A stretch of DNA of 64,000 bases, taken from the sequence record MK295205; one strand, written 5' to 3'. The position numbers and the translations under genes are program-made. Origin of the DNA: Shigella phage vB_SflM_004. Below are positions 592-61,708 of the stretch, piece after piece (positions within the stretch are counted from its first letter, which is position 1; each line of letters begins with the position of its first letter). The notes under the pieces are model-generated. The model was given only the letters and a program-made list of their open reading frames with translations. It did no database searches and had not been told where the DNA came from.

Positions 592-620
592 GAAATTAAA
601 AAGGCTCCCGTAGGAGCCTC
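592..620 (-). terminator. rho-independent terminator after NAMPT-like gene
   Basis: minus-strand hairpin GAGGCTCC-TACG-GGAGCCTC followed by T-run (plus strand aaaaaggctcccgtaggagcctc). Confidence 0.6.
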
Positions 621-633
621 TTATCATATACTT

Positions 634-2448
634 TTAAAGCTGCTTGTCAATATTATTTCGAATATCACCAAGAGTCGTGTAGCCGAACTGCTCAGAGTCG
701 CTAAAGACTAGACGTAAAGCACAAGCTGGATGCTCAAGTGCATCTGCAAAACTCTGGAATCCATAGCCATCTACAGCTTTCAGGTTCTCACCATCCCACA
801 TAGGGGCTACACCACCAAAAGCAGACTTCTTAATACCACTATCTGTTTTAGGGTCTTTTGCAAGCATAATCTCTTTACCACCAATGCTTGCAAGAGTTGC
901 TTTGACAGCAAATGCAAAGGTGTCACGAGTCATGTACTGGTAAGTGTAAGAACCTACACCAAACACTACGTTAGAACTTGCAAAACCCATTTCATACAAA
1001 CGCTTCAGTATTTCGTTTGCACGTTCCAACGTGATAGAGTCACCATAAATAAGTCCGATATGCTCATCCAGTACTTTAAAACCTTTAGAGTTGATAGTTC
1101 CTCCAAAGATGTTATACAGTGTCTTGATAGCTCCATCAATCTCCGCCACAGGACGTGTTACAACGTTTGCAGAACCAACCATATAAGCGTTTTTCAACAG
1201 CACTGTATCAGCAACTTCAAAGTCTTCTCTGTCAACAACCATTTCGTAGCCTTCTGACAGTAGCCATCCAGCAATACCATAATTGATGTTTTCAAGCTTC
1301 ATGTTCAGAACAGCATTCAACATTGTGTCGCTGGCTTCCAGCTTGCTTAAGTGTTCGTAATAAGCCTTTTTAGCACACTCTAAATGGATTGCTTTGTATC
1401 CTGTGACAATATGTACAGGGTCTCCAGAATCAGGACGAATTACCAGTTTGCCATTGCGTTCCATAATCTCTTTACGGAGTTCTGGTAATATAACTGATAC
1501 AGTTCTCCAGAAGTTATAAGTATCTGAAACAACACTTGCAATACCAGTTGGGTAAGTTTCTGTTAAGAAACGACGGAAGGTTTGTAACTCACCTTTAAAG
1601 CGTCTTTCTTCTAGCAAGTTGTCAGACTGTAACAGATGCCAATCATCAATCAACTCATTACCACCTTCCCAAGCAATGTTTGCACACATTACAGAATGTT
1701 CAGTGGCTGGTACAGAACTACCAATATCAGAAATTGGGTAAGCCTGTCCATAGATGCGTTTAGCCGTGTATACAGCAGGGAAGCTATCAGTTCCTTTAAA
1801 GCTGGTTAAGTGGCCTACAGCGTTAAATGCGTCATCAGTAAAGCCAGACATACCACGCATAGCAAAGTCATGGCACTGATAAGGCAAATGTAAGTCGTTG
1901 TCACAAGTAAGGTCAGACCACTTCTTACAGATGCGTTTGTAGTGCAATGCAATAGTTGCAATGGTACAAGCCTTCCAAATCTCAGCAGAGAAAGCATCTT
2001 CCAGATACCCAGCTACCCAGTGGAAACCTGAAACAGTGTTCTGGAAGACAATCATTGGTACACGCATAGGGACAACTGTGCCTTCTTCTACAGCGTATAC
2101 TTCAACTGGCAGATAACCTAAGTCGTGAAGTGCTTCCCAATGCTCTCGACCAATAGCATCTTTACCCAGAACTCCGTTCATGACTTCTAAGATTTCATCA
2201 ATTGCTTCTTTTTTGTCACGTTCGAAGAAGGTGGCGTTCCAGTGGTCTATCAGGTAATCTTTAACGAAACGTTGAATACCAAAAGCAACTACACCATCAA
2301 TTGCTAAGGGGCTGTTAAACCATTTGTCACTACGTGGTGTCAGGTTCAACATAAGATATTGCGTAGCATCTGGATACTGATATATATGTGATGCCTTGTA
2401 AGCATCTGCATTAAGACCTGCTGGTACTGCGTAAAGTGACTTACTCAT
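634..2448 (-). CDS. nicotinamide phosphoribosyltransferase family protein (NadV/NAMPT-like; possibly Namat-type)
   Basis: 604-aa ORF with NAMPT-family motifs: HDFAMRG, FKGTD, SVPATEHS, VVSDTYN, IRPDSGDP, VFGVGS, AKDPKTDSGIKKSAFGG. Confidence 0.8.
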   Translation of the reverse strand: MSKSLYAVPAGLNADAYKASHIYQYPDATQYLMLNLTPRSDKWFNSPLAIDGVVAFGIQRFVKDYLIDHWNATFFERDKKEAIDEILEVMNGVLGKDAIGREHWEALHDLGYLPVEVYAVEEGTVVPMRVPMIVFQNTVSGFHWVAGYLEDAFSAEIWKACTIATIALHYKRICKKWSDLTCDNDLHLPYQCHDFAMRGMSGFTDDAFNAVGHLTSFKGTDSFPAVYTAKRIYGQAYPISDIGSSVPATEHSVMCANIAWEGGNELIDDWHLLQSDNLLEERRFKGELQTFRRFLTETYPTGIASVVSDTYNFWRTVSVILPELRKEIMERNGKLVIRPDSGDPVHIVTGYKAIHLECAKKAYYEHLSKLEASDTMLNAVLNMKLENINYGIAGWLLSEGYEMVVDREDFEVADTVLLKNAYMVGSANVVTRPVAEIDGAIKTLYNIFGGTINSKGFKVLDEHIGLIYGDSITLERANEILKRLYEMGFASSNVVFGVGSYTYQYMTRDTFAFAVKATLASIGGKEIMLAKDPKTDSGIKKSAFGGVAPMWDGENLKAVDGYGFQSFADALEHPACALRLVFSDSEQFGYTTLGDIRNNIDKQL

Positions 2449-2466
2449 ATTTTATCTCTCTCTCTC

Positions 2467-2958
2467 TTAGTTATGTCTTGCAAACTCACCATGAAGTTCT
2501 ATTCGCTTTTTAATTACAGCTTCTTTTGCTTCTTCTACCGTTTTAAATCTTCCACAAAAGTATTCTTTATGGTAAAGCATGACTCTTGCTTTGTAAAGAC
2601 CTGTTTGTTTACAAAAACTTACACCCTTCACACCAGTTTTATTATTCTTGTATATACCCCTATTCCTCTGATTTTGTGACTTTGTGCTAAGTCTTAAATT
2701 CTCCAACTTATTATTAGATTTATCAAGGTCTATGTGGTCTATCTCATATCCACTTGGTATCTCACCTCCAGACATAATCCATGCAATATTATGTGCATAG
2801 TACCTCTTCTTATTTATCTGGACTTGGATATAACCCTTCTTAGACCTTGTGCCAGCAACATTACCAGCAATAGCGGTATTGCAAAGGGTTACTTTCCAAA
2901 TTAGTAAACCTGTCTCCGGTTCGTATATTAGGTATTTTTCGAAGTAACCCTTATCCAT
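2467..2958 (-). CDS. HNH homing endonuclease with AP2 DNA-binding domain
   Basis: 163 aa; HNH motif (AHNIAW...IDHIDLDKSNNKLENLRL) followed by AP2-like segment (TGVKGVSF...YKARV); sits between two metabolic genes. Confidence 0.7.
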   Translation of the reverse strand: MDKGYFEKYLIYEPETGLLIWKVTLCNTAIAGNVAGTRSKKGYIQVQINKKRYYAHNIAWIMSGGEIPSGYEIDHIDLDKSNNKLENLRLSTKSQNQRNRGIYKNNKTGVKGVSFCKQTGLYKARVMLYHKEYFCGRFKTVEEAKEAVIKKRIELHGEFARHN

Positions 2959-2966
2959 TTTAATAC

Positions 2967-3848
2967 CTAATCCAAATTTGCTACAGTAACTTGACCATAA
3001 TGTGTTAAACCACGGTCTTTATCTTCCCCTAAAGAGTTTGTAGTGTAGATGTGGTCAATACCATTGTCAAGAAGGTTTTCAACACCTTTAGAAAAGATAC
3101 CATGTGTTACATAGAGTTCCACACGTTTTGCACCTGCTTCACGAAGATGTTTAGCTGCTTCTATGAAGGTTCGTCCTCCATCACAAATATCATCCAGAAT
3201 CATGACGGTTTTATCTGTCAAATCAACATCATCAAGGATTCGTATACCAGTAATTTCACCAGTCTTAAGGTTACGTACTTTAGACATTGTGATGTATGGC
3301 TTATCCACCTCTTTAGCAGTCTCTGCAATCTTCTTAGCAGCACCTGCATCTGGGGCTACTAAGTAATCAACCAGTGGGTCATTTGCATAGTGGACTGCAA
3401 TTTCCTTTTGAGGAATACTCTGGAAGCAGTTAAACAGGTTATCTGGTACATAACTGTGAGGGTCAACTGCACAGACTGCACCAAACCCCATTGCATTAAC
3501 CTGTTTAGCAAAAACCTTCAAAGCTGCTGCATCACCTTTAAACATGTGACGGTCATATCGTGCATTTGGTAAGTAGTAAAAAATGACAGTCTTTAAGGCA
3601 TAGTCATGAGGGACTAAATCATCAATTGCTTCTTTAGCAAGTGCCACAGCAAACAATGTGTCCTTATCATAACCTTTCACAATCATAATCACATTGTTGA
3701 TAGATGATGCTGCATAAGCAGTAAAATCAACAAGCTCTTGTGAAAAGTGTCCACCAATCTCACCAGAAGGGAATTGAATGATGTTAAACTCTTCTTCATG
3801 AGTCCCTTTAGTCGGTGAATGAACTGTAACACGGATAGATGTTTTCAT
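2967..3848 (-). CDS. ribose-phosphate pyrophosphokinase family protein (Prs/PRPP synthetase-like; possibly Adps-type)
   Basis: 293 aa; PRPP-binding motif MILDDICDGGRTF, VDPHSY; GAGAGAGA SD-like sequence upstream. Confidence 0.8.
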   Translation of the reverse strand: MKTSIRVTVHSPTKGTHEEEFNIIQFPSGEIGGHFSQELVDFTAYAASSINNVIMIVKGYDKDTLFAVALAKEAIDDLVPHDYALKTVIFYYLPNARYDRHMFKGDAAALKVFAKQVNAMGFGAVCAVDPHSYVPDNLFNCFQSIPQKEIAVHYANDPLVDYLVAPDAGAAKKIAETAKEVDKPYITMSKVRNLKTGEITGIRILDDVDLTDKTVMILDDICDGGRTFIEAAKHLREAGAKRVELYVTHGIFSKGVENLLDNGIDHIYTTNSLGEDKDRGLTHYGQVTVANLD

Positions 3849-3860
3849 AGTTTCTCTCTC

Positions 3861-4139
3861 TCAATCAAAAGTTACGTTTGTTACTGCCATTGCAGATTTG
3901 CATTTTGCAGGGTCTACAACGTGATAAAGTACACTACAGTTACCTGTGCTGTCTGGTACAGGTTTAACCCATTGTTGCTTGACAGTTGGTTCTCCTAAGT
4001 CTTTGTAAGAGCCATCTGTAAAATTGTTTACCATCTCAAGTGCAATTGGTTCTGGGACATGACCACGTATCATGTACATTTCACAACCATTACCACCCTC
4101 ACTGACTAGTGGTAAAATCTCCCACTTTTCTTTAGCCAT
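3861..4139 (-). CDS. hypothetical protein
   Basis: 92-aa ORF in operon context. Confidence 0.4.
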   Translation of the reverse strand: MAKEKWEILPLVSEGGNGCEMYMIRGHVPEPIALEMVNNFTDGSYKDLGEPTVKQQWVKPVPDSTGNCSVLYHVVDPAKCKSAMAVTNVTFD

Positions 4140-4647
4140 TGTAAGTTGCCCTATAAACTGTCTCGAACTTCAACAGGAGAGATATTGCCAAATATGTATA
4201 GTTGTTGTCAAGCACATCTGGCATATTATTTTTGATATATTTCTCTTGCTCTTCATAGGTCATCTTAGGGGTGCTTAAAAGACTATCGCCTTGCCTCTGG
4301 TTATCAAGTTTAGTCTGGATAAACCAGTTTGCACAGTGATGTTCACCACCTTTTGTAACGGGTTTGTGATGACCTAATGTGAAGGATTGATTACCTGTGT
4401 ATCTGCAAAGTTTATTGAGAACTGTAATAGTGTTCTTCACAACAAAACATTCATACAGGTTGTCTATAGTGTAGTGTGGGTAATAGCGGAATAGTGCTCT
4501 TTCACGAGTACTATCACGATTCCAGAGAATCATGTGATTAGAGTTAGAAGGGTCGTATTGGTGGGAGTCGATGAACTCTTGACGTTCCTCAAAGCTGAGT
4601 CTTAGAACTGACATTGCAACCGAACGTTTCAGGTTTGACAGATACAT
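4132..4647 (-). CDS. hypothetical protein
   Basis: 171-aa ORF; no recognised motif. Confidence 0.45.
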   Translation of the reverse strand: MYLSNLKRSVAMSVLRLSFEERQEFIDSHQYDPSNSNHMILWNRDSTRERALFRYYPHYTIDNLYECFVVKNTITVLNKLCRYTGNQSFTLGHHKPVTKGGEHHCANWFIQTKLDNQRQGDSLLSTPKMTYEEQEKYIKNNMPDVLDNNYTYLAISLLLKFETVYRATYNG

Positions 4648-4698
4648 TTTATCTCCAAAATAAAAAGGGAACCTTTACAGTCCCCTTATAGTATCTGT

Positions 4699-6960: not shown

Positions 6961-9105
6961 TTACATAGAGATTCTGTCACGAATCTCAGCGATTTTTGCA
7001 TCGTTCATTCGGGATTCACCTTTAATCTTAGTCCATCCAAGATACCCACACACCCTGTTAATCACAGAGATATCATGTGAATGGCAAACCTCACATTCCT
7101 CAACATCAGCCTTTGGTCTGTTACCACAATGCTCACAGATTGCTAAGTCAAAGTTAAGCCCCTGATAAAAACCTTTCAACATCCCTCTTGTAATACAACT
7201 TTTAAGTGCTGGTAAGTTTTCTGGGTTAGCTACTCTTACATACTGGATTCTGCCACCTCTACAGATATGGAAGAATGGCTCTTCTAAGTCCTGCTTCTCA
7301 AATGGTGAGATGTCTGCTGCAACATTCATATGGAAACTGTTTGTAAAGTATTCTTTGTCAGAAACACCTTTAATAACACCAAACATATCTCTGAACTGTT
7401 TTAACTGAGTTCCACAAAGTGATTCTGCTGGAGTGCCATAGACTGCATATAAGAAACCATCTTCATTTTTAAACTCTTCAGTCTTCATGTTGATGTATGC
7501 CAGAACATCGTATGCAAAACTATAGCTTCCAACTTCATGAAGTCGTTTACCTTCAGCAAGAACAGATAACTCATCAAGTGCAGTAACCCCAAAAGAAGCT
7601 GTGAAGGACTTCACGATATCCCAACCAACCTTATCAGTAGGTTTCTTAGTGCCTTTGTACAGACCGCCTTGTGTGAATGCAAGAGGGTTAGAACTTGCTG
7701 GCATATTAGCAATCATTTCGTAGCGTTTCTTGTGGAAGCTGCGAATCATCTCTAGGTACTTATCAAGCTCTTTCCAGAAGTCTAAACCATTCTCTTTAGA
7801 ATACTGGTAAATCATTGGCAAGTTCAAAGATACAGCACCAATGTTAGCACGACCAACATAGAACTCTTCCCCATCCTCATTAAGATATGGAGATAAGAAG
7901 GCTCTGCAACCCATCGGTGAAATCACCTTGCCAGAACGCTCAAAAGCCTCTGCTACAGCACCGTGACCAGATACACTTAAGAAATCTGGATACATTGCTT
8001 TAGAGCAACACTCAATAGCTTTACTGTACAGGTGACCTTGACAGATATTTTCATCATGTCTCTTCTGGTCATAGATATAAACCAGTTTAGGGAATACAAC
8101 AGGTTTTTTGCTCTTACCTTGTCCATTCATACGAACATCTAAGAGAGTACTTGCAATCATGTATTGTAGTCGGTTGTCTTCATTAGACATATCTGAGTCA
8201 AGTAGTCCGAATGTCAAAGTTGTGAATGCAAAATCACCACGGCTGCAAGGTACAGTGTTCAGTTTCATTTCAAGTGACTGAAAACCTTGAGTTAATTCAA
8301 TCTGTAGCTGCTCCATGACATAATTATGGTAATGTTCTTTAGGAATACCATAAGATGCTGCTTTCTCAGCATGGTAGCGTAGAGACTTCTTAGCATACGG
8401 TACAAGTACCTTATCAATCTCTGCTAAAGTAAAGCCGCCAAATTGCTGTGCAGTTGCTGAAAGAACTACATCACCAATAACCTGTAAGGCTGACAGTACA
8501 GACTTCGGTTCACAGTATTCGATGCCAGACATTTCAAAGCCACCTTTCAGTACTTTACCAATGTCAAACAGACAACAGTTGATACCACCAAAAATTAGGT
8601 CTCTTAAGTCATGGATGTAGATAAACCCTTTTTCAATGGCTTCAAGTTCCTCTGGTGTTAAATGGTACTGTTTAAAGATTTCTTTAGTCAGATAACCACG
8701 AATAATTGAGCCTTTTGTGGAAATTAAACTGCTGTCAAAGTTAGCATTTTCACGGTCACCTAAGAAGAGTGTGTCTCTAGTCTTTTGGTAAAGCTCATCC
8801 CAATTTTGAGCAACCTCTTTACGGTAATTTCTATATGTTGAGTAAGACTCATAAATCTCGTGATTGACTTCTGCCAAAGCACCCTCAACAATACTGTGAA
8901 TATCATTTACCGAGATTAGCAAATTATTCTGCTTAGTGGACTTTACCAGAATCCTCATAAATGCTGACTCAAGAGCTTGGGTAACATCTGGTGGAAGTTC
9001 TTTATACCCAACCCTGTTAGCTGACTTAGTTACTGCTGCTAAAACTTTTTTGATATCAGGTTCTTCAAGTGAGCCATTCTTTTTAATAATCTGTACTTTG
9101 TTCAT
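6961..9105 (-). CDS. nrdD: anaerobic ribonucleoside-triphosphate reductase NrdD
   Basis: 714 aa; C-terminal glycyl-radical motif RVCGYLG and Zn-ribbon CEHCGN...CEVCHSHD; N-terminal ATP-cone-like segment. Confidence 0.85.
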   Translation of the reverse strand: MNKVQIIKKNGSLEEPDIKKVLAAVTKSANRVGYKELPPDVTQALESAFMRILVKSTKQNNLLISVNDIHSIVEGALAEVNHEIYESYSTYRNYRKEVAQNWDELYQKTRDTLFLGDRENANFDSSLISTKGSIIRGYLTKEIFKQYHLTPEELEAIEKGFIYIHDLRDLIFGGINCCLFDIGKVLKGGFEMSGIEYCEPKSVLSALQVIGDVVLSATAQQFGGFTLAEIDKVLVPYAKKSLRYHAEKAASYGIPKEHYHNYVMEQLQIELTQGFQSLEMKLNTVPCSRGDFAFTTLTFGLLDSDMSNEDNRLQYMIASTLLDVRMNGQGKSKKPVVFPKLVYIYDQKRHDENICQGHLYSKAIECCSKAMYPDFLSVSGHGAVAEAFERSGKVISPMGCRAFLSPYLNEDGEEFYVGRANIGAVSLNLPMIYQYSKENGLDFWKELDKYLEMIRSFHKKRYEMIANMPASSNPLAFTQGGLYKGTKKPTDKVGWDIVKSFTASFGVTALDELSVLAEGKRLHEVGSYSFAYDVLAYINMKTEEFKNEDGFLYAVYGTPAESLCGTQLKQFRDMFGVIKGVSDKEYFTNSFHMNVAADISPFEKQDLEEPFFHICRGGRIQYVRVANPENLPALKSCITRGMLKGFYQGLNFDLAICEHCGNRPKADVEECEVCHSHDISVINRVCGYLGWTKIKGESRMNDAKIAEIRDRISM

Positions 9106-13597: not shown

Positions 13598-13922
13598 GGT
13601 ATTTCTCCAAGTTTCTTTTTAGATATAACCAACCATAGTCAGTTCTTTCTACACCCATGAAGAGTGGAGCCATTACAACTTTACCAAAAGTATTCCTGTG
13701 TTGACAGATTTCAAAAGAATACTCTTTCTCAATATCAATCCCGTATTTGTACAGAACTGCTTTTAAAACTTGTTCATTATCCAGAAGTGTATCTGGAGTC
13801 TCACCATACTTCTCAAGTAACGGGTCATTCATAAACACCGTCATAGAGATATTGTAGTTTGAGAAGTGGCTCTTCTGAGCCACACCTTCTTTATTAATGT
13901 TCTGTGAATCCATTATAACCAA
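13590..13922 (-). CDS. hypothetical protein
   Basis: 110-aa ORF. Confidence 0.45.
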   Translation of the reverse strand: MVIMDSQNINKEGVAQKSHFSNYNISMTVFMNDPLLEKYGETPDTLLDNEQVLKAVLYKYGIDIEKEYSFEICQHRNTFGKVVMAPLFMGVERTDYGWLYLKRNLEKYHV

Positions 13923-14649
13923 CCCCTTTTAACCAGCACTTCAGGTTATTAGCATCATAATTCAGTTTTGGGTATGAGGTTACATGGAACTGCTCACCAT
14001 CATAGTAGACAATATCTGCAATCCATAGTCCATTCTCTTTACAGAAATCTTTATCTGCTTTAGAGGTAATTGGATTAACTTCTACAAAACCATCTACACC
14101 CAAATCCTTTAAGCTACATACAATACCTTTGCAGATAACGCATGTCTCAGATACTACCACAAAAAGTTCTTGGCTTTCAAGTTCTACAATGTATTCACCA
14201 AGCTGAACTTTAGGGAGATTAGATTGCTTCATAATCTTCCCATCGGCTGCACGAACAATTGCATACCATTCTTTGCCATCAACTACTGACATTCTGATGA
14301 TACACTCTTGACCAGTACGCTTCTCAATATCTGCAAGACGTTTTAAAGCTTCTTCATAGTCGTCTGTGTACTTCAGGTCATTATTATGGCAAACAGCTTC
14401 CATAGCACCATTATGGTCATGTTGTGACAGGTAAATCAAACCGTCAAGAACATATTGCAAATCTGCCTGAGCATCCAGTGCCTCAATGGGGTCTTTCTCT
14501 TCAATTGCTTTTACAAGCTCTTTTGCTTCTTCAAGCATACACAGGGACTGGGATTTCAAAGATTCCCAATACTCATCACTGTAAGGTTGCTTTTGGGTGT
14601 TTCCGCAACGAAGATTCCAGTTTTTTACTGATTCTCTTGAGTTAAACAT
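13894..14649 (-). CDS. putative nucleotide pyrophosphohydrolase (MazG-like N-terminal domain)
   Basis: EEAKELVKAIEE...DAQADLQYVLDGL resembles MazG EExxE...D motifs; C-terminal half unassigned. Confidence 0.4.
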   Translation of the reverse strand: MFNSRESVKNWNLRCGNTQKQPYSDEYWESLKSQSLCMLEEAKELVKAIEEKDPIEALDAQADLQYVLDGLIYLSQHDHNGAMEAVCHNNDLKYTDDYEEALKRLADIEKRTGQECIIRMSVVDGKEWYAIVRAADGKIMKQSNLPKVQLGEYIVELESQELFVVVSETCVICKGIVCSLKDLGVDGFVEVNPITSKADKDFCKENGLWIADIVYYDGEQFHVTSYPKLNYDANNLKCWLKGVGYNGFTEH

Positions 14650-14893: not shown

Positions 14894-15391
14894 TCAAGCA
14901 CAGTTTGCTTTCATTACCTTATGGATTCTTTTTTCAGCATCTTCATAAGTTTCTTTAGTAATAAACTTAATTGCTGCAATATTGGCATTGTAGAAGAGTC
15001 TGAGCTTAGAGTCAATCCTTTTTGTCATTACATCGAATTTATGTTGAAGGTTTGCTTCACCATAAACTAGACCACCTTTTGTGTAGTAGGTTTGAATAAT
15101 GTAAAAGTCAAAAAACTCTTTTCCAAAACTCTCAATATCTTTTTTAATATACTCAGAAGAAGTCTCATAAGTCATCCAATCACTTTCCTTAGTGACTACC
15201 TTCTTCCGAGTCTTACCAGCAACTTTTCTTTTGGTCACACTATTAAGCTGTTTCTTTCCAATATAGTATTGTCCGGTTTTCTTACAGTGTACTAAATAGA
15301 CAAAACCAAAATGTTTAGTGGGGTCAACTTCCCCACATAAAGATACCCAATGACCATAGGTGGGACAATTGCCAAATCCTTTAATCTTCAT
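14894..15391 (-). CDS. putative GIY-YIG-like nuclease
   Basis: FGFVYLVHCKKTGQYYIGKK resembles GIY...YIG motif; weak. Confidence 0.35.
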   Translation of the reverse strand: MKIKGFGNCPTYGHWVSLCGEVDPTKHFGFVYLVHCKKTGQYYIGKKQLNSVTKRKVAGKTRKKVVTKESDWMTYETSSEYIKKDIESFGKEFFDFYIIQTYYTKGGLVYGEANLQHKFDVMTKRIDSKLRLFYNANIAAIKFITKETYEDAEKRIHKVMKANCA

Positions 15392-15887
15392 TCATACACG
15401 GCTCCTGATTTGTGAACTCTCTGTGAAGTTCTTCTCTTTTCTTTCTAATTGCTTCTTTGGCATCATCAACGTTATCAAACAGACCAAGGAAATGTGTTAC
15501 ACCGTGAACCATAATCCTTGCTCTCCACTTCTGTGAAGCTTTGTTGAATGATACACCTTTTACACCAGATGTATTGTTGGAGTGTATTTTTCTATTCCAA
15601 CAATTTTCAGCTTGAGTGCAAACTCTCAAGTTCATTCTTCGGTTGTCATCAGTAATTCCGTTACGATGGTCTACACGGTCTGGTAAGAACCCCTCTGTGT
15701 AAAGAATGGCTAAATCATGAGCCATGTATGATTTTCTCTTTATGGTAATCCTGATATAACCCCTTTTATGGGGTGTTCCAGCAACTGAACCAATGACTGT
15801 CCTATTAGCCGATTTCTTCAACCAAGTAAAGACCCCTGTTTCGGGGTCATAATGAAGATACTCTTTAAGTGTCTGCTGAGTCAACAT
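15381..15887 (-). CDS. HNH homing endonuclease with AP2 domain (second copy)
   Basis: MAHDLAILYTEGFLPDRVDHRNGITDDNRRMNLRV (HNH) plus TSGVKGVSFNKASQKWRARI (AP2-like); paralogous to 2467-2958. Confidence 0.7.
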   Translation of the reverse strand: MLTQQTLKEYLHYDPETGVFTWLKKSANRTVIGSVAGTPHKRGYIRITIKRKSYMAHDLAILYTEGFLPDRVDHRNGITDDNRRMNLRVCTQAENCWNRKIHSNNTSGVKGVSFNKASQKWRARIMVHGVTHFLGLFDNVDDAKEAIRKKREELHREFTNQEPCMNED

Positions 15888-20492: not shown

Positions 20493-21236
20493 TTAAATTT
20501 TAAGGATAGCTCTTAGCTTGCTTTCAAGGTCTGCAAGAGTACCATTATTATGAATAATGTCACGCGCATATTTGGTAGAAATCCCATTTTCTGAAACATG
20601 TGACGAAACCTTATCCACATTGTCTCTTTTTACTTCAATAATTTGGTGTGCAAATCTGCTCAGCCACTCAGCTTCAGAGTCAAACCTTAAGTCACTGATT
20701 AAAACAACACCATCTTGATTCTTAAGTGAGCAAACGTCAAAGAAATTTGCCATTCGTTTTTCGAGGTCTTTAGCCCAGAATTTGTCACCCATAACTTTAC
20801 GGATAACTTCAGTGCCCCAAATCTGTTGAATCTGTCTTGATGAGAATTTATACTTTTTACTAAATCCCAGACGTGTTAATAGAGTCGGTTTAGCAACCTT
20901 CTTTAGTTCCATAATTAGTCGTCCGGTCAACTCTGACATGAGTTTGAAGTCATTATGGTAACTTTCACCTCTGAAGGTAAACTCCATAGCTTCTTTGACT
21001 TTGAACATCAGTTCATGGTATGATAAATCAAAAACCTGTGGAGTCTCTTTAGTTTCACCGTACAGGTCATTCCATGTCAAGTCAAATATCTTTGACGCAG
21101 ATAGCTTAAGATTGTCTGCATAGGCCATTACTGCAACATTGTATCCGTACTCATCCTCTAAGATGTTCTTCACAATAGAACATGAGGTATCTTTTCCAGA
21201 ACGTGCCTTTCCAGTAAATGCGATAATATTACTCAT
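20493..21236 (-). CDS. deoxynucleoside monophosphate kinase
   Basis: P-loop FTGKARSGKDT near N-terminus, resembling T4 gp1 dNMP kinase. Confidence 0.6.
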   Translation of the reverse strand: MSNIIAFTGKARSGKDTSCSIVKNILEDEYGYNVAVMAYADNLKLSASKIFDLTWNDLYGETKETPQVFDLSYHELMFKVKEAMEFTFRGESYHNDFKLMSELTGRLIMELKKVAKPTLLTRLGFSKKYKFSSRQIQQIWGTEVIRKVMGDKFWAKDLEKRMANFFDVCSLKNQDGVVLISDLRFDSEAEWLSRFAHQIIEVKRDNVDKVSSHVSENGISTKYARDIIHNNGTLADLESKLRAILKI

Positions 21237-25957: not shown

Positions 25958-26205
25958 CATACGCAGACGTTATTCAGCAACTTCACGACAACTGCTATAC
26001 CCCAGAGTTGATTCAGGAGATGTGTATTGTAGTGATGCCTAGCAAGTTCGTAAAAGCCTTTAGAAATGAAAATTTCACATCTGATGAGTTCTTTGAAATA
26101 AAAGACGGAAAGGTTGTATGTGAAATGGGTTACCCAATGGCTGCATGGTACAAGGGGGAACCTTGGCAGAAAACTGGATGGAGTATCTTTAATGAAACTT
26201 TATAG
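25954..26205 (+). CDS. hypothetical small protein
   Basis: ATG with GGAGACA SD, ATGA overlap with upstream stop; contains [11 protein letters not shown] segment repeated at 39573 and 40571. Confidence 0.45.
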   Translation: MTYADVIQQLHDNCYTPELIQEMCIVVMPSKFVKAFRNENFTSDEFFEIKDGKVVCEMGYPMAAWYKGEPWQKTGWSIFNETL

Positions 26206-26335
26206 CATTTGGGGAAGAGTTGGTGAAGGTTATGACTGGACTCTTCTTAAAACAAATGTTAAAAGTAACGAGATAGCTTACTACAAAATCTATTACCATA
26301 AAACTTTTAGAGAGGTAGAGTATCGTGAGCAATAA
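26192..26335 (+). CDS. hypothetical small protein
   Basis: internal ATG (MKLYSIWGRVGEGYDW) with GGATGGAG SD. Confidence 0.3.
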   Translation: MKLYSIWGRVGEGYDWTLLKTNVKSNEIAYYKIYYHKTFREVEYREQ

Positions 26336-26589
26336 AGAGCAAGAAGCTTTAGCAATCTTCAAGAGCGAAGACAAATCAATAGCTATTGGACTACGACCCC
26401 GAAACAGGGGTCAGACTATCAATGGTACTTAGATTTGTGTAAAATGAAATCTGTAGAGCCAGTTGATGAAACCCGATTCAAAGAACTGTATAATATCTGC
26501 CAAGAGGGTTATGAAGAACATTACGAAGGTTCTTTGAATCCTGTAAATTCAAAAGCTTCAGACTTATTTTACTTGGAAGTTTAGAGAGA

Positions 26590-26763
26590 GTAGTCCTACT
26601 GGTTGGATGTAACCCTTCTTATGAGAATAAGGATGCTTCTTACAGACTTCCTCCGGTATCACGAGGCAATAAGAACTTCAACTCTCGTGCCATTAGCAGG
26701 GATGTTATTGTAGTTCGCTGCCCAAATTCTCAAGACTACTACTTCTTACAAGTATGGAAAGAA
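26590..26763 (+). pseudogene. fragment of lipoprotein gene (paralog of 45889-46158) lacking a start codon
   Basis: translates to LLVGCNPSYENKDASY...IVVVRCPNSQ..., matching the 45889 lipoprotein; no in-frame start upstream. Confidence 0.4.
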
Positions 26764-26804
26764 TAGTCAGTCACATACTACTGTTTTTGATTGAGGATAT
26801 TAAT

Positions 26805-27011
26805 ATGCAGGTTCTTGTAAATTTTATCTATAAGTATGAAAACATCTTCAGTAACATGACTGTAGCACAACGTAATCCTGTTATACCACGAGAAGGAAAA
26901 AAGGCAGGAAATTATAGTTGGAACTACAAAGTTGAAGAAGTCAAACACAAATTCAAAGATGGTTATGACCACCAAGTTGTAAATGTGTATTTAAAAGGTA
27001 AGTGGCAATGA
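26805..27011 (+). CDS. hypothetical protein
   Basis: ATG (MQVLVNF) with GAGGAT SD. Confidence 0.4.
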   Translation: MQVLVNFIYKYENIFSNMTVAQRNPVIPREGKKAGNYSWNYKVEEVKHKFKDGYDHQVVNVYLKGKWQ

Positions 27012-32926: not shown

Positions 32927-33366
32927 ATGATTAAGTTAATTTTTGCAAGTGGTATTAACGGGGAGTTTGGCACAGCTACTGGAATGCCTTGGCCTCGTAA
33001 TAAACAGATTTTAGGAAGCAGACTGTTAACCAGTTAGTCTTGATGGGTAGCGAAACTTGGAAGACTCTTGGGAGCAAGCCTTTGCCAAACCGTGAGAACA
33101 TTGTCTTGACAAACTCTCTTGACTTTTATGGTCTGGATTTTAAAGATGACTCTCATTGTAAAGCAAGAGTTAAGCCTGAAGCTTTTGGGGCTTTCCTGAA
33201 GTATATTGATAGCTCTATTGATGAAGATGTTTTAGTAATCGGTGGAGCCAATATCTTAATCTCAGCTTTGCCGTATGCTGACGTAGTTTTCCACAGCGTC
33301 ATTCAGGAAGTTACAGGACAGGTAATCACCGAATTGCTTGGTGGGTTTCTTCCAGTACTTGTATGA
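32927..33366 (+). pseudogene. dihydrofolate reductase, frameshifted
   Basis: N-terminus MIKLIFASGINGEFGTATGMPWPRNKQ in one frame stops at 33035; DHFR continues in the next frame from 33004 (DFRKQTVNQLVLMGSETWKTLGSKPLPNRENIVLT...VIGGANIL...LPYAD); one-base shift near 33000-33008. Confidence 0.6.
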
Positions 33367-33461
33367 CACAGATTTATTTGCTAAAGTACAGTCCAAACCT
33401 CTGGATGACAGGTAAGTGGCCTGACAAACACATTGACCACAAAGAAGAGGGCTTTTCTAAT

Positions 33462-34350
33462 ATGTCACAAGCAGATGTAAGCTACAAAGCTATTTTAAAC
33501 CATGTTTTATCAGTTGGTGAGTTGCGTAAAACCAGAACTGGCTCAGTGATTTCTACCTTTGCTCCACCTGAGTTCCGTTTTGATATGCGTAGTGGATTTC
33601 CATTAATCACCTCAAAACAAACGTTTATGCGTCAAGTCCTCGGTGAAGCATTATGGTTTATGAACGGTGAAAACCAACTAGGCCATTTGCGTTACAGAAC
33701 TTGGGGGGAGAATGACGGAGAGCGTTGGACTATCTGGACAGATGATTTTAAACGTTGGTTGAAAACAACCTATGCTACAGAGAATGATTGGCTGGAGGAC
33801 GCTGGAGGAAGAATCTATGGAGTCCAATGGAGAGCCTACGAAGGTCATGGTGGAGTTGTTGGAGATGGTTTGAATAACGCTTGGGACAATCTAAGAGAGG
33901 CCACAAAAGAACAGAACATGTCTAATAACGCATGGAATGCAGCAGATATATCAAGTAACTCTATGGCATTAGCACCTTGCCATGTACTTTTTCAGATTTA
34001 CATCTCGAACACTAATGAGGTAGATTTGAAATGGTATCAGCGCTCTTGTGATACGTTCTTAGGATTACCATTTAACATTGCTTCCTATGCCTTTATCTTG
34101 GAAGTGTTGTGTAAACTGACGGGGTATACACCGCGATATCTGATTGGTACTTATGGTGATACTCAAATCTATCAGAACCATATGTCGCAGGTTTTTCAGC
34201 TTCTTGGTAATGGAGACAACCTAGAACATCAATCAAGATTTGAAGTCTCTTGAAGACTTGAGACATATGACAGCAGATGACTTCCTAGGTGGGTTGAAAG
34301 GGTATAAACATGCTGGTAAGATTGAAGCACCTTTATCAGTAGGTAAGTAA
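33462..34350 (+). CDS. thymidylate synthase (apparent frameshift near 3' end)
   Basis: ThyA motifs RTGSVISTFAP, YGVQWRAY, catalytic ALAPCH, YQRSCDTFLGLPFNIASYA, GDTQIYQNH; conserved C-terminus (DDFLGGLKGYKHAGKIEAPLSV) is in a different frame after about 34240. Confidence 0.65.
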
Positions 34351-37598: not shown

Positions 37599-38788
37599 TT
37601 AAGCAACTCTCTTCCACACATAAACAACATAAGATGGTTGTTCAACACTGAAAGCTTGTCCACCACCAGATGCACCAGTTGTACCTGAGTGAGTGTGCTC
37701 AGAAGATTGAACTGTCACAGTACCACTGTGTGTATGTGAACCAATACCGACTGTGTGGCTGTGAGCACCAATACCGACTGTGTGGCTGTGGTCACCGGAT
37801 GCACCAGATGTAACATCTCCAATCGTCACAACGTGAGAGTGGTCACCTGCCCCATAAGTTGGTTGTGACGCATTACCAACACCTGCATCAGCCGTTGCCG
37901 TAATAGCATTCACACCACGTCCACCAACGTTCTGTACAAGAGCTTGGTGAGTGTGATTGCCAGAGTTGTTTGTATTCCTTGAACCATAGTCAAAAGTACT
38001 GGTATACTTAGTTCCATAGTCAAAGTCACTTGTAGATTTTGTACCATAATCAAACACACTCGTTGTCTTATTTCCGTGGTCGAAACTTGAAGCTGACGCA
38101 CTATTACCATGCGTGTGTCCACCACCAGTTAACAATACAGAGTGTGTGTGACTTGGAATGTTATTTTGAGAAAGTGCTACAGATGCACTACCAAAATTAG
38201 TTTCAACTGGTCTTGTGTCAGAATCATAACCAACTAATGCTCTACCTTTAGAGACAAGTTCCCAAGTACCACCACAAAGTAAATATGTAGATGGGTTTGC
38301 AGGGTTAACTGACAAATGGATAGTACCAATTGGGTAACTATTCTGGATAGCTCTATAAAGAGCATTCACAGCTTTTGCAGTAGCATACTTATCAGCATCT
38401 TCAGAGTAAGAGTTTGAATAAGTCCAGTATTGAATATTGGAGACATCTACCTGAATCTTGTTAGTATTGTGAGGGTTGTTCTTATCATTGATGTGGTTCT
38501 GAATAAGAGTATTAACTTCATCACTTGATAGAATATTAAGGTTCTGCCTAGCCTCTTCAACACTAACCACGTCTGACAAGTTATTAGCAGCCATTAATTG
38601 GAGTGCGTTAACAACATTACCAAGTTCTACGTGAACCTTTGTAACGCCGTGTGGGTTATTTCTTAAAGATGCGTGTGGAGCAAGTAATTGCTCAAGTGTG
38701 CAACGCTTATCCTCAAAAAAATGACACTTGTGTCAATAGGTAAAGAGGCTTGAGGCAATGCACTAATTTGAATTTCACCAACTGCCAT
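37599..38788 (-). CDS. tail fibre protein (frameshift at A7 tract)
   Basis: N-terminus from ATG at 38788 (MAVGEIQISALPQASLPIDTSVIF) continues in +1 frame after plus-strand A7 run at 38715-38721 into ...NNLSDVVSVEEARQNLN... and His-rich C-terminus; track reports only 37599-38594. Confidence 0.6.
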
Positions 38789-38790
38789 TA

Positions 38791-39189
38791 TTAGCTCCCT
38801 TTATATTCGTATGTGTAAAGGTTAGTCGTGCTAGTGGGTGCAGTTCCTGTTACTGTGTCAATTAATTCCCAACCATTGGAAACTAAATCAGGTTGCTCCG
38901 TAGCAAATGAACGAACCTCTCCAACCGTACCATTTACTTTGTTAAGCAAATAGTTAATAATATAGTTAAACCACTGGCGACCCATAGGCTCTCCCCTTAA
39001 TAGGCCAGTGGCTTGAATTTCTGGAGGTGGTAATACTTTAAGCTGGTTACTCCCTTCTTGTTGTGATTTATCTTTTCTACCTTTGACGATTTGAGCAACT
39101 TCTGCCATAATACCATAATCGCCACCAGTTACCATTTCTTTACCAGCAATAAAATAGTCACTGCTATTGTTTGTCTTGCTGACTTTCAT
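38791..39189 (-). CDS. hypothetical structural protein
   Basis: 132-aa ORF directly upstream of tail fibre gene. Confidence 0.4.
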
Positions 39190-39601
39190 ATAATCTTTAC
39201 TGGTACTTCCACCAGTTTTGTCAACTCTAAAGTAACCATCCCTAATACCAGCATCTGCAAAGCTACCAAGCTTGTTAGCCTCCAGAGAACCACCTGTGTT
39301 GTTCGTAATAAGACCCTTGTTAGTGTCTGTAACAAACCAGTTGTTGTTCTCATCAGTAATTGCCAGACGTTATTCAGCAACTTCTACAGGAGTCCACGCA
39401 GTACCATTTAGCGTAATATCTCTTATGATAACTGCTACACTAATAGTTGCCAGAGTTAATTCAGGAGATGTGTATGCTGTATCTACAACGTTGTTTCGAG
39501 TGTTTACACGAACAACAATACCACCCGTCATAGGTGTGATATGTTCAAAGATTTGACTAAACGTTGCATTGTAGTGATGCCTAGCAAGTTCGTAAAAGCC
39601 T

Positions 39602-59860: not shown

Positions 59861-60397
59861 TTATTTGTAGTAATAATATGTAAACTCATTTATCAGGCTT
59901 CCATCCTCATCATTATACTGCTTATGACTAGCCAGATAACCGCCATTAGCTAGAATTTCATCAATCAACTTTTTAGCGTCATCGTTGGGAATCCTAACAG
60001 GTTTACTAAACGGCTGTAAATAGGTACGACGAACATTTGAGAATTTAAAATCAATGGTTTTTACGTTAAGAACTTGCAACATTTTTTGAATCTCCAGTTT
60101 AGGATTGTTGGGATGTTTCCCGTTGATGAATACTTTACTTTCTTGCGCAGTCTTCAAGTGATTCTGGAAAACACCATAATCATGAGTCCTTTTATTTTCT
60201 AACATGACACCTAATTGTGACTCTTGTAAGGCTATAGCTGCTAAAGGGATTCCCCAACCTTTTCCCATCTGTCCTTCGCCATAGTTATATGCTTTTAACA
60301 TATTTACTTTCTGACTGATTGTAAGTTCTGGACAGTCAGATGCTGTAGCTAAATGTGCTGTAAAGAATAAGCACAAACCTAAAACAAATTTCTTCAT
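59861..60397 (-). CDS. secreted protein with lytic transglycosylase-like motif
   Basis: signal peptide MKKFVLGLCLFFTAHLATA; AIALQES...GVFQ resembles SLT-domain catalytic motif; a copy of the conserved leader lies in frame inside the ORF at about 60083-60130. Confidence 0.45.
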   Translation of the reverse strand: MKKFVLGLCLFFTAHLATASDCPELTISQKVNMLKAYNYGEGQMGKGWGIPLAAIALQESQLGVMLENKRTHDYGVFQNHLKTAQESKVFINGKHPNNPKLEIQKMLQVLNVKTIDFKFSNVRRTYLQPFSKPVRIPNDDAKKLIDEILANGGYLASHKQYNDEDGSLINEFTYYYYK

Positions 60398-60458
60398 TTG
60401 CACTCCTATTTTGTTAAACATGCAGACAATTATACATCATCCTGCACATTTTTCAAAT

Positions 60459-60481
60459 AAAAAAGGCTGCCGAAGCAGCCC
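60459..60481 (-). terminator. rho-independent terminator after rIIB
   Basis: minus-strand hairpin GGGCTGC-TTCG-GCAGCC followed by TTTTTT. Confidence 0.65.
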
Positions 60482-60497
60482 TTTAGGAATTTACTTA

Positions 60498-61619
60498 TTA
60501 TACTTCACGTTTACGCTGAGAAATCAGTTCACCAGCAGTCCCTACAACTACATGAAGTGCTTCTGAACCATCCCACTCTTTGATGACTTCACGGCGACTA
60601 TTCACAATCGCTGCAACTTCATAACGTGAAGCTCGCATTTTCATATCGTTGTAGTCAGTTGGTACTGAAACAACATCACGAGGATGAACACGAACTTTCA
60701 GGATAGTGTCACCAGAGAAGCTAGTTACATAGTCCCAAGCCCCAACATGCAGACCCTGAGAGCATGTTACATGACGGTTATTATCAACCATCCAACGTGG
60801 CATCTCAACAATGTTACCCAAATCGTTTGGAACTTTGCAGGTACGAGAGTCAAACAGTTTATCACTACGAGTTGTGACTTTCTTCCAACCGATGATATAA
60901 CCTTCTTCATCAATTTCAACATCAAGGTGTGATACAAAGCCCCAAAGCTGTTCTACAGAGTCTTTTGATGGGTTTTCCATCAGTTTTTCGAAGAATGCAA
61001 TCAGACGGGTAAAGCCTTCATCACCTTTCTTCATCATGTCCAGAATACGGTCTACCAGAGTTGAACGCATTTGAACAGCACCGTAGTACAGGTTATCACC
61101 TTTAATGGTCACAGCACCCTGAGTAAAGTTCTCAATGGATTTGCGAATATTCATCAGTTCAAAGGCTTTCTTGTACTCACCTGATACAACAGCCATAACA
61201 ATTTCAGTGTAGTTAGGGTGAGTTGATTCAACAATCTCTGACTCTGCACCGAAAGTCATGATAACCGAGTCACCAGTAATCATGTATTCAATCTGACTAT
61301 TATTCTGCATTGCTTCGTGCAGAGCATTTACAGGTTCTGCTTTGACTGCTTCTTTAACAGCTTTTGCAACAGGTTTCTGAGTAGCTACCTTTTTAGTTGC
61401 TTTAGCTTTCTTAGCACCCTTTGCAATATCTTTCAAAGTCTTCGCAGGTTTTGCTTTGGTTTTCCCTGTCAGTAAAGTTGCTTCATGACGCTCTACAGCA
61501 CGACCTACAGAACGAGTTGAAGTATTGTACTTCAGAGCAATTGCAGTTTTGGTAAGTTTACCTTCTTTAACCAGTGCGTAGATTTCTGCGTCGATTTGTG
61601 CTTTAGTCTTAGTAGTCAT
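60498..61619 (-). CDS. rIIB: rIIB-like protein
   Basis: colinear similarity to T4 rIIB as recalled: LVDRILDMMKKGDEGF, PRWMVDNNRHVTCSQGLHV, VRVHPRDVVSVPTDYNDMKMR; Lys/Ala-rich linker after N-terminal domain. Confidence 0.8.
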   Translation of the reverse strand: MTTKTKAQIDAEIYALVKEGKLTKTAIALKYNTSTRSVGRAVERHEATLLTGKTKAKPAKTLKDIAKGAKKAKATKKVATQKPVAKAVKEAVKAEPVNALHEAMQNNSQIEYMITGDSVIMTFGAESEIVESTHPNYTEIVMAVVSGEYKKAFELMNIRKSIENFTQGAVTIKGDNLYYGAVQMRSTLVDRILDMMKKGDEGFTRLIAFFEKLMENPSKDSVEQLWGFVSHLDVEIDEEGYIIGWKKVTTRSDKLFDSRTCKVPNDLGNIVEMPRWMVDNNRHVTCSQGLHVGAWDYVTSFSGDTILKVRVHPRDVVSVPTDYNDMKMRASRYEVAAIVNSRREVIKEWDGSEALHVVVGTAGELISQRKREV

Positions 61620-61662
61620 TTTAATATCTCTCTTTGTTGTTTAAAGTTACTTAGTGGTTCGT

Positions 61663-61691
61663 ATTCTAAGGGGCTTTTCAGCCCCTGTCAA
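61663..61691 (-). promoter_or_regulatory. sigma70-like promoter for rIIB
   Basis: minus strand TTGACA, 17-nt spacer (itself a hairpin GGGGCT-GAAA-AGCCCC), TAGAAT; about 40 nt upstream of rIIB ATG. Confidence 0.55.
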
Positions 61692-61708
61692 ACTCCTTGT
61701 CAAATACT

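Follow-up and report, generated by a model that had tools for sequence, protein, structure and literature searches.

A gene pair of Shigella phage vB_SflM_004, orthologous by its sequence to the founding NARP1 operon, with a predicted homing endonuclease gene in its spacer

We analysed a window of 64,000 nucleotides (nt) from the 85,887-bp genome of Shigella phage vB_SflM_004 (sequence record MK295205), in which a pair of minus-strand genes between positions 634 and 3,848 encodes a protein of 293 amino acids (aa) resembling phosphoribosyl pyrophosphate (PRPP) synthetase, or Prs, and a protein of 604 aa resembling nicotinamide phosphoribosyltransferase, or Nampt. Judged from its sequence, the pair is an orthologue of the founding operon of the NAD+ reconstitution pathway NARP1, genes 79-80 of phage Bas63, and the system is therefore already known, in line with an earlier note on this DNA that had placed it in a known class. 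It is very probable, in our view, that the two genes constitute a NARP1 anti-defence pathway made up of Adps (ADP-ribose pyrophosphokinase) and Namat (nicotinamide ADP-ribose transferase), with the activities and the phenotype carried over by analogy from Bas63 and from the homologous system SpβL1. What the window itself shows is the orthology, the conservation of residues for catalysis and specificity, the fold, the gene context and the lack of a detectable Nmnat (nicotinamide mononucleotide adenylyltransferase) gene in the stretch covered. Domain searches cover the ORFs (open reading frames) of the window, and about 22 kb of the genome lie outside it.

Under this assignment, a host effector of SIR2, TIR or SEFIR type would split NAD+ into ADP-ribose (ADPR) and nicotinamide. 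Adps would then move pyrophosphate from ATP onto ADPR to give ADPR-pyrophosphate (ADPR-PP), and Namat would swap that pyrophosphate for nicotinamide, so that NAD+ would be formed directly, with no nicotinamide mononucleotide (NMN) intermediate and with no host salvage enzymes. The HNH gene that lies between the two would be a selfish invader of the adps-namat spacer, outside the chemistry of the pathway. The features concerned are as follows.

2967..3848, minus strand: adps, putative ADP-ribose pyrophosphokinase (Prs-like), 293 aa, the first gene of the pair (ORF and Pfam).
2467..2958, minus strand: free-standing HNH homing endonuclease gene, 163 aa, with HNH_3 and an AP2-like DNA-binding region, in the adps-namat spacer.
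634..2448, minus strand: namat, putative nicotinamide ADP-ribose transferase (Nampt-like), 604 aa (orthology, fold and residues).
922..954, minus strand: selectivity-clamp helix motif (SCH) of Namat, GSYTYQYMTRD, aa 499-509 (from the translation).
2320..2325, minus strand: stacking pair K42-W43 of the selectivity-clamp loop (SCL) of Namat, the same as in Bas63.
1135..1398, minus strand: Ounavirinae-specific inserted α/β subdomain of Namat, aa 351-438.
1613..1645, minus strand: 33-nt in-frame segment of namat (…DWHLLQSDNL…), which accounts for 604 versus 593 aa.

From the ORF listing, the order of transcription is adps, HNH gene and namat, and all three ORFs are intact on the minus strand. The adps gene ends 518 nt upstream of namat on the same strand and only the HNH gene lies between them. 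The earlier note had described the same arrangement, a Nampt-like protein of 604 aa and a Prs-like protein of 293 aa in tandem with a homing endonuclease between them, and the ORF listing reproduces it to the nucleotide. The three proteins are those deposited as AZV01425-27, as found by exact-sequence match. The 3.2-kb locus is matched by 256 phage records, most of them at 90-98% nucleotide identity and with the same gene calls, and so the tandem arrangement is not a chance ORF pattern. Nearly all of these records belong to Felixounavirus, the Felix O1-like phages, with Escherichia, Salmonella and Shigella as hosts, and we assign the phage of the window to Felixounavirus, the genus in which NARP1 was discovered.

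NARP1 was defined from a "Prs + Nampt" two-gene operon of phages of the BASEL collection (Osterman et al., bioRxiv 10.1101/2024.02.11.579819). When genes 79-80 of Bas63 were deleted, about 20-fold fewer plaques were formed on cells carrying SIR2-HerA; the wild-type phage overcame SIR2-HerA also in a ΔpncC ΔnadR host, and ADPR-PP was seen only when wild-type Bas63 infected defence-carrying cells (10.1101/2024.02.11.579819). Bas63 (JohannRWettstein, MZ501086.1) is a Felixounavirus, and its genes bas63_0079 and bas63_0080 share both the genus and the neighbourhood of the window: nrdG, four small genes (two of which are the 171-aa and 92-aa ORFs treated below), adps, namat, further small genes and rIIA. 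The two loci differ in the spacer, which is 45 nt long in Bas63 and replaced by the 492-nt HNH gene in the window, and in the length of Namat, which has 593 aa in Bas63 and lacks the 11-aa Moogle-type loop segment of the window protein, while the clamp residues are the same.

The 293-aa protein contains the Pfam domains Pribosyltran and Pribosyl_synth. Against NCBIfam it barely passes the broad ribP_PPkin subfamily model (119.4 versus 113 bits) and falls far below every canonical Prs equivalog cut-off, for example 104 versus 296. It is 78% identical to the product of Bas63 gene 79 over 293 of 293 aa without a gap, 35% identical to SpβL1 Adps in a BLASTP alignment of 195 aa (99.8 bits; 32% by MAFFT) and 26% identical to Prs of E. 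coli. The lysine of the catalytic flexible loop is kept as K190 in TMSKVRN (codon 3279-3281), which corresponds to K162 of SpβL1 Adps and K197 of B. subtilis Prs; the substitution K162A inactivates the SpβL1 enzyme. With these pairwise identities and model cut-offs, we place the protein in the phage-specific Adps clade of the Prs family, a clade for which Bas63 Adps was among the query sequences. The N-terminal half of adps is the part most divergent from Bas63, at 61-80% nucleotide identity. PADLOC gave only weak matches of Adps to the phosphoribosyltransferase domains of PsyrT/ShosT (about 1e-6), which are accounted for by the shared phosphoribosyltransferase fold and do not point to a defence role.

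The 604-aa protein matches NAPRTase (1.9e-33) and NAMPT_N in Pfam and passes the NCBIfam model NF006629 with 466.7 bits against a cut-off of 405. It is 94% identical to the product of Bas63 gene 80 and 46% identical to SpβL1 Namat. Namat is described as the shared Nampt catalytic core plus an adenine "selectivity clamp" of two parts, a helix and a loop, and this clamp is needed specifically for the reaction with ADPR-PP (PMC12774641). The core residues D13, Y15, F189, R192, D215, R306 and D308 of SpβL1 correspond to D15, Y17, F195, R198, D221, R338 and D340 of the window protein, and G360, D361, G390, S391 and R399 correspond to G469, D470, G499, S500 and R508; all are conserved, and the catalytic histidine is kept as H251 in PATEH. 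Compared with the NAD+ contacts in the SpβL1 crystal structure, only two are changed, S190 to A and A362 to S. Both changes are also present in Bas63, to which all NAD+-contacting residues of the window protein are identical.

Both parts of the clamp can be recognised. The helix motif GSYTYQYMTRD has tyrosine at positions 3 and 7, which fits the published definition of Namat, whereas the equivalent segment reads GGALLQKVDRD in the Nampt of Xanthomonas (Xcc) and GAQTYQRNTRD in HdNadV of Haemophilus; bona fide Nampt and NadV enzymes are without these two aromatic residues. For the loop, it has been reported that when the third position is Lys or Tyr the next residue stacks on the adenine, with Bas63 as an example (PMC12774641). 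The window protein has K42-W43 there, identical to Bas63, while SpβL1 uses Arg40 directly. In a phmmer search of the PDB, the Namat entries 9w5w/9w5x were matched with E = 1e-127 and Nampt enzymes with 1e-40 to 1e-50. An AlphaFold2 model built with 46 homologues reached a mean predicted local distance difference test (pLDDT) of 92.6 and a predicted template modelling score (pTM) of 0.91, and the top Foldseek match of this model was "Crystal structure of Namat" (TM 0.95 on the target), followed by HdNadV and then by human NAMPT. The NARP1 of SpβL1 (Namat PDB 9w5w/9w5x; NAR 2026, PMC12774641) thus shares with the window the same two genes, the catalytic residues, the SCH motif and the fold, but its Namat is without the Ounavirinae insertions (aa 258-289 and 351-438 of the window protein). 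The preference of the earlier note for Adps/Namat over Nampt/Nmnat is borne out by the orthology to Bas63 79-80 together with the clamp signature of Namat.

Homologues of Namat were also seen in other settings. Chromosomal homologues of 495-496 aa in Klebsiella, Cronobacter and Kosakonia (about 45-48% identity) carry the clamp motif GS[FY]TYQYNTRD and are labelled "nicotinate phosphoribosyltransferase", which fits the reported bacterial NARP1 homologues. The family phrog_12872, with 547 positions and the label "nicotinamide phosphoribosyl transferase", aligns with Adps at positions 37-224 and with Namat at positions 253-534, which suggests that fused Adps-Namat proteins exist in some phages.

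The same two proteins could be read as ordinary salvage enzymes ("NadV plus Prs"), in which the Prs-like protein makes PRPP, the Nampt-like protein makes NMN, and the host NadR or PncC/NadD completes NAD+. The Pfam, PHROG and GenBank labels read this way, as does the classical annotation of Felix O1, and Namat enzymes keep a measurable Nampt activity on PRPP in vitro (PMC12774641). However, the wild-type Bas63 with the orthologous operon defeats SIR2-HerA in the host that lacks pncC and nadR, and ADPR-PP accumulates. SpβL1 Adps converts ADPR and ATP into ADPR-PP and gives no product with ribose-5-phosphate, while SpβL1 Namat makes NAD+ from ADPR-PP and nicotinamide and, when PRPP and ADPR-PP are given together, forms NAD+ only (10.1101/2024.02.11.579819). 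The window Namat has the adenine clamp needed for the ADPR-PP reaction, and the Prs-like protein stays below all the canonical Prs equivalog cut-offs. We therefore regard ordinary salvage as a very improbable description of the pair, and NARP1 as the description that the proteins fit.

We now consider the HNH gene, which separates the two genes in the window. Its 163-aa product matches HNH_3 (1.6e-19) and, weakly, AP2 in Pfam, and has a PHROG match as well, with no NCBIfam model. This 492-nt gene occupies the site in the window and in pinkbiff, D4, BPS15Q2, Felix O1 and Moogle, and a spacer of 45 nt is found there in Bas63, Tf, PK6 and DE17. Of the 174 matching phage records, 60, or about one third, have an intact Adps/HNH junction. 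Five Felixounavirus alleles with the gene and four without it were aligned over their shared 2.7 kb. It was found that all of the 18 fixed differences between the two groups (18/18) lie at or beside the insertion site, in the last approximately 12 columns before the HNH gene, in the remnant of the spacer and in approximately 130 columns after it, that is, in the start region of Namat; the shared 2.7 kb has hundreds of further variable sites, and no fixed difference was found among them. Because the fixed differences cluster at the insertion, the gene is interpreted as a homing endonuclease with co-converted, cleavage-resistant flanks. It is a mobile element, present in some relatives and absent from others at one fixed intergenic site, for which cleavage is predicted; neither enzyme ORF is disrupted by it, and it does not belong to the pathway. 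In the flanks themselves, 2320-2448 and 2967-2980, the variants common to the alleles with the gene (window, pinkbiff, D4, Felix O1, BPS15Q2) are absent in those without it (Bas63, Tf, PK6, DE17). The N-terminus of Namat accordingly reads MSKSL…ASHIYQYPDATQYLML in the former and MTKSL…SGHVYQYPSATEYLMF in the latter, a signature of co-conversion or of target immunity.

The length of Namat requires a separate explanation. The remark in the earlier note that the Nampt-like protein is longer than the canonical enzymes stands (604 versus about 491-495 aa), but the use of this length as an argument for Adps/Namat does not. SpβL1 Namat has 491 aa, about as many as HdNadV (495 aa) and human NAMPT (491 aa) as counted from the PDB chains, and so the extra length is no hallmark of Namat. 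In an alignment with SpβL1 Namat, two stretches of the window protein, aa 258-289 and aa 351-438, stand out as insertions. The long form, of 582-610 aa, is common to Ounavirinae-like phage homologues down to about 45% identity, such as those of phiSUSP1, Yersinia P778, Pectobacterium Arno162 and Salmonella SB18, while chromosomal homologues from Klebsiella and Cronobacter, of about 495 aa, keep the Namat motif and are without the insertions. For the segment aa 351-438 (about 88 aa), the full model and the cropped one alike predict a compact α/β subdomain with confidence, and no structural relative of it was detected. The length of 604 aa therefore comes from insertions of the Ounavirinae lineage, chiefly this α/β subdomain.

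A smaller part of the length is supplied by the 33-nt segment at 1613-1645, whose 11 aa make the difference between 604 aa and the 593 aa usual in Felixounavirus; a 606-aa member of the Namat cluster differs only in its start. The segment is absent from Bas63, Tf and pinkbiff, and of 216 records with a blastn match not one spans it (0/216). A private insertion or an assembly artefact was considered as its origin and was ruled out by the Namat of Mooglevirus, which has the same peptide (SDWHLLQSDNLLD); since Moogle Namat shares it, the segment is a natural Moogle-type allele. In the structure model it falls in a surface loop of low confidence (pLDDT 63-67).

The condition of the record as a whole bears on whether the module would be functional. 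Past about 25.5 kb, the window loses collinearity with the Felixounaviruses and becomes Moogle-like, at 87-99% identity, and 60148-61694 is 100% identical to Moogle rIIB. The region 25500-64000 has multi-kb gaps and contains no terminase, portal or tape-measure gene; its thyA, dhfr and tail-fibre genes are frameshifted, and fragments of a DNA-ligase gene are scattered at about 27.7, 45.6, 51-53 and 56.7 kb. A truncated "major capsid protein" (205 aa) and a "protease" (275 aa) are annotated so in the deposited vB_SflM_004 record, and the right end of the window (rIIB/rIIA) would join the left end. It is likely that two Ounavirinae phages were mixed or poorly assembled in this record. The NARP1 region belongs to the part of the window that is clean and collinear.

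One may accordingly ask whether a NARP1 module is present but impaired, either by a polar effect of the HNH gene on Namat or by sequence errors of a poor assembly, given that the record is a patchwork with structural genes truncated past about 25.5 kb and that the 33-nt segment is absent in other Felixounaviruses. Against this, none of the three ORFs is truncated or out of frame, and the arrangement containing the HNH gene is kept in the 60 phage records with the intact junction, including Felix O1. The GA-rich sequence AGAGAGA, a likely ribosome-binding site, is retained directly upstream of the Namat start codon despite the HNH gene, and the 33-nt segment is the natural surface-loop allele described above. 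We give very little credence to an impaired module, and take the NARP1 genes of the window to be intact.

The remaining possibilities depend on whether other enzymes of NAD+ or ADPR metabolism are encoded. A Pfam scan of 30 window ORFs (29 of at least 140 aa, with a few shorter ones close to the operon) gave no CTP_transf_like/Nmnat, NadR, Nudix, Macro or RyR domain. The statement in the earlier note that no Nmnat-like gene is visible nearby is thus upheld among the window ORFs screened. Neither was a Macro or RyR domain found by Pfam in the HNH gene or in the two ORFs on either side of the operon, and tblastn with the Macro proteins of Bas63 and Moogle gave no match in the window. Nor does the annotation of the complete Bas63 genome list a protein of the Nmnat, NadR, Nudix, Macro or RyR type, except a "putative phosphatase" with a Macro match. 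As the Nmnat, Macro and RyR domains were not found, the readings as NARP2, NARP1-AP and RyDEP do not apply to the visible genes.

The Nampt-plus-Nmnat pathway NARP2, of which Vibrio phage KVP40 is an example, and the NadV of bacteria (such as HdNadV, PDB 9ke8) share with Namat a homologous phosphoribosyltransferase fold and nicotinamide chemistry, but have no Adps partner, use PRPP as substrate, need an Nmnat and are without the two aromatic residues of the SCH. That the window encodes a true Nampt with a phage Nmnat elsewhere in the genome is extremely improbable: about 20% of the phage Namat/Nampt homologues do form a separate clade without Adps (NARP2), and part of the genome lies beyond the window, yet here adps adjoins, no Nmnat or Nudix protein was found among the ORFs screened or is annotated in Bas63, and the SCH motif is of Namat type and not of NadV type. 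The variants NARP1-AP, with the Macro-domain ADPR-1P phosphatase Adpp, and NARP1 with RyDEP, an RyR-domain glycosidase, have the same Adps/Namat core with an extra gene within the operon; this extra gene is an ADPR-processing enzyme in the variants and a homing endonuclease in the window.

A Macro protein is encoded at a distance in relatives of the phage. A "putative phosphatase" of 261-264 aa with an N-terminal Macro domain (PF01661, about 1e-7) is found in Bas63 (Bas63_0095, 26178-26963) and in Moogle (Moogle116, 38504-39298), about 8 kb from NARP1 and past rIIA, rIIB and pnk. It could be a dispersed form of the Adpp of NARP1-AP, since it lies outside the span of two genes on either side that was used to find Adpp. 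As a long shot, which we think rather unlikely, the subdomain at aa 351-438 of Namat may dock Adps, so as to channel the labile ADPR-PP, or may have a regulatory role, and/or the distal Macro protein may extend NARP1 to ADPR-1P, in a split version of NARP1-AP, so that the Ounavirinae module would exceed its core of two enzymes. SpβL1 Namat is without this subdomain and shows no stable binding of Adps.

Several considerations weigh against the assignment of the pair to NARP1. What is known of the chemistry in vitro comes from the SpβL1 homologues, to which the window proteins are related at the 35% (BLASTP; 32% MAFFT) identity of Adps and the 46% identity of Namat, and Bas63 Adps could not be purified (10.1101/2024.02.11.579819). 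The Nampt activity of Namat on PRPP makes some synthesis of NMN conceivable, and the HNH insertion could in principle lower the expression of Namat. Outside the NARP1 region, the quality of the deposited genome's assembly is doubtful, and the search for Nmnat covers the window, with approximately 22 kb of the 85,887 bp lying beyond it.

The surroundings of the operon contain three further features.

599..622, minus strand: terminator-like hairpin directly past the namat stop codon (consensus scan; 10-bp stem, then a T-run).
4665..4687, minus strand: terminator-like hairpin, a possible upstream boundary of the transcription unit (consensus scan).
3861..4647, minus strand: two conserved upstream ORFs of 171 aa (4132-4647) and 92 aa (3861-4139).

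The hairpins at 4687-4665 and 622-599 enclose five ORFs, namely those of 171 aa and 92 aa, Adps, the HNH gene and Namat, and phage Moogle has an annotated terminator at the place equivalent to the upstream hairpin. This suggests that the five ORFs may form one transcription unit, on promoter and terminator scans that give consensus matches only, and the 171-aa and 92-aa ORFs may be co-transcribed with NARP1. Both are conserved in Bas63 (genes 77-78) and in Moogle. Pfam and PADLOC gave no matches for them; they match PHROGs of unknown function, and the 171-aa ORF has a weak HNH-like match (E = 6e-4). As components of the pathway they were considered and rejected, the homology from Pfam, PHROG and PADLOC being uninformative. 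The deletion that gave the phenotype in Bas63 took out genes 79-80 only and not the homologues of these upstream ORFs.

For annotation, the GenBank labels "nicotinamide phosphoribosyltransferase" and "ribose-phosphate pyrophosphokinase" should be corrected to read as NARP1 counter-defence. The phage and its approximately 250 close relatives, several of which are therapeutic or typing phages for Salmonella, E. coli and Shigella, would be predicted to plate on hosts with SIR2-HerA, type I Thoeris, DSR1/2 or SEFIR systems, and not on aRES hosts. No new principle is involved.

Some other genes of the window were noted in passing. A 251-aa protein at 13894-14649 has a MazG-like PRA-PH pyrophosphohydrolase domain (5.8e-6), and a deoxynucleoside monophosphate kinase is encoded at 20493-21236; both belong to ordinary nucleotide metabolism. 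The genome is rich in selfish endonucleases. Two of them are placed back to back at 14894-15887, as in Moogle: a GIY-YIG SegE-like one of 165 aa and a second one with HNH_3, of 168 aa. The thymidylate synthase ORF at 33363-34253 contains an HNH_3 fragment at aa 167-186 (E = 3.9e-5, below the cut-off), and its C-terminus continues in another frame when compared with ThyA of Bas63. NrdD at 6961-9105 (714 aa) is unbroken here, whereas a homing endonuclease gene interrupts that of Bas63.

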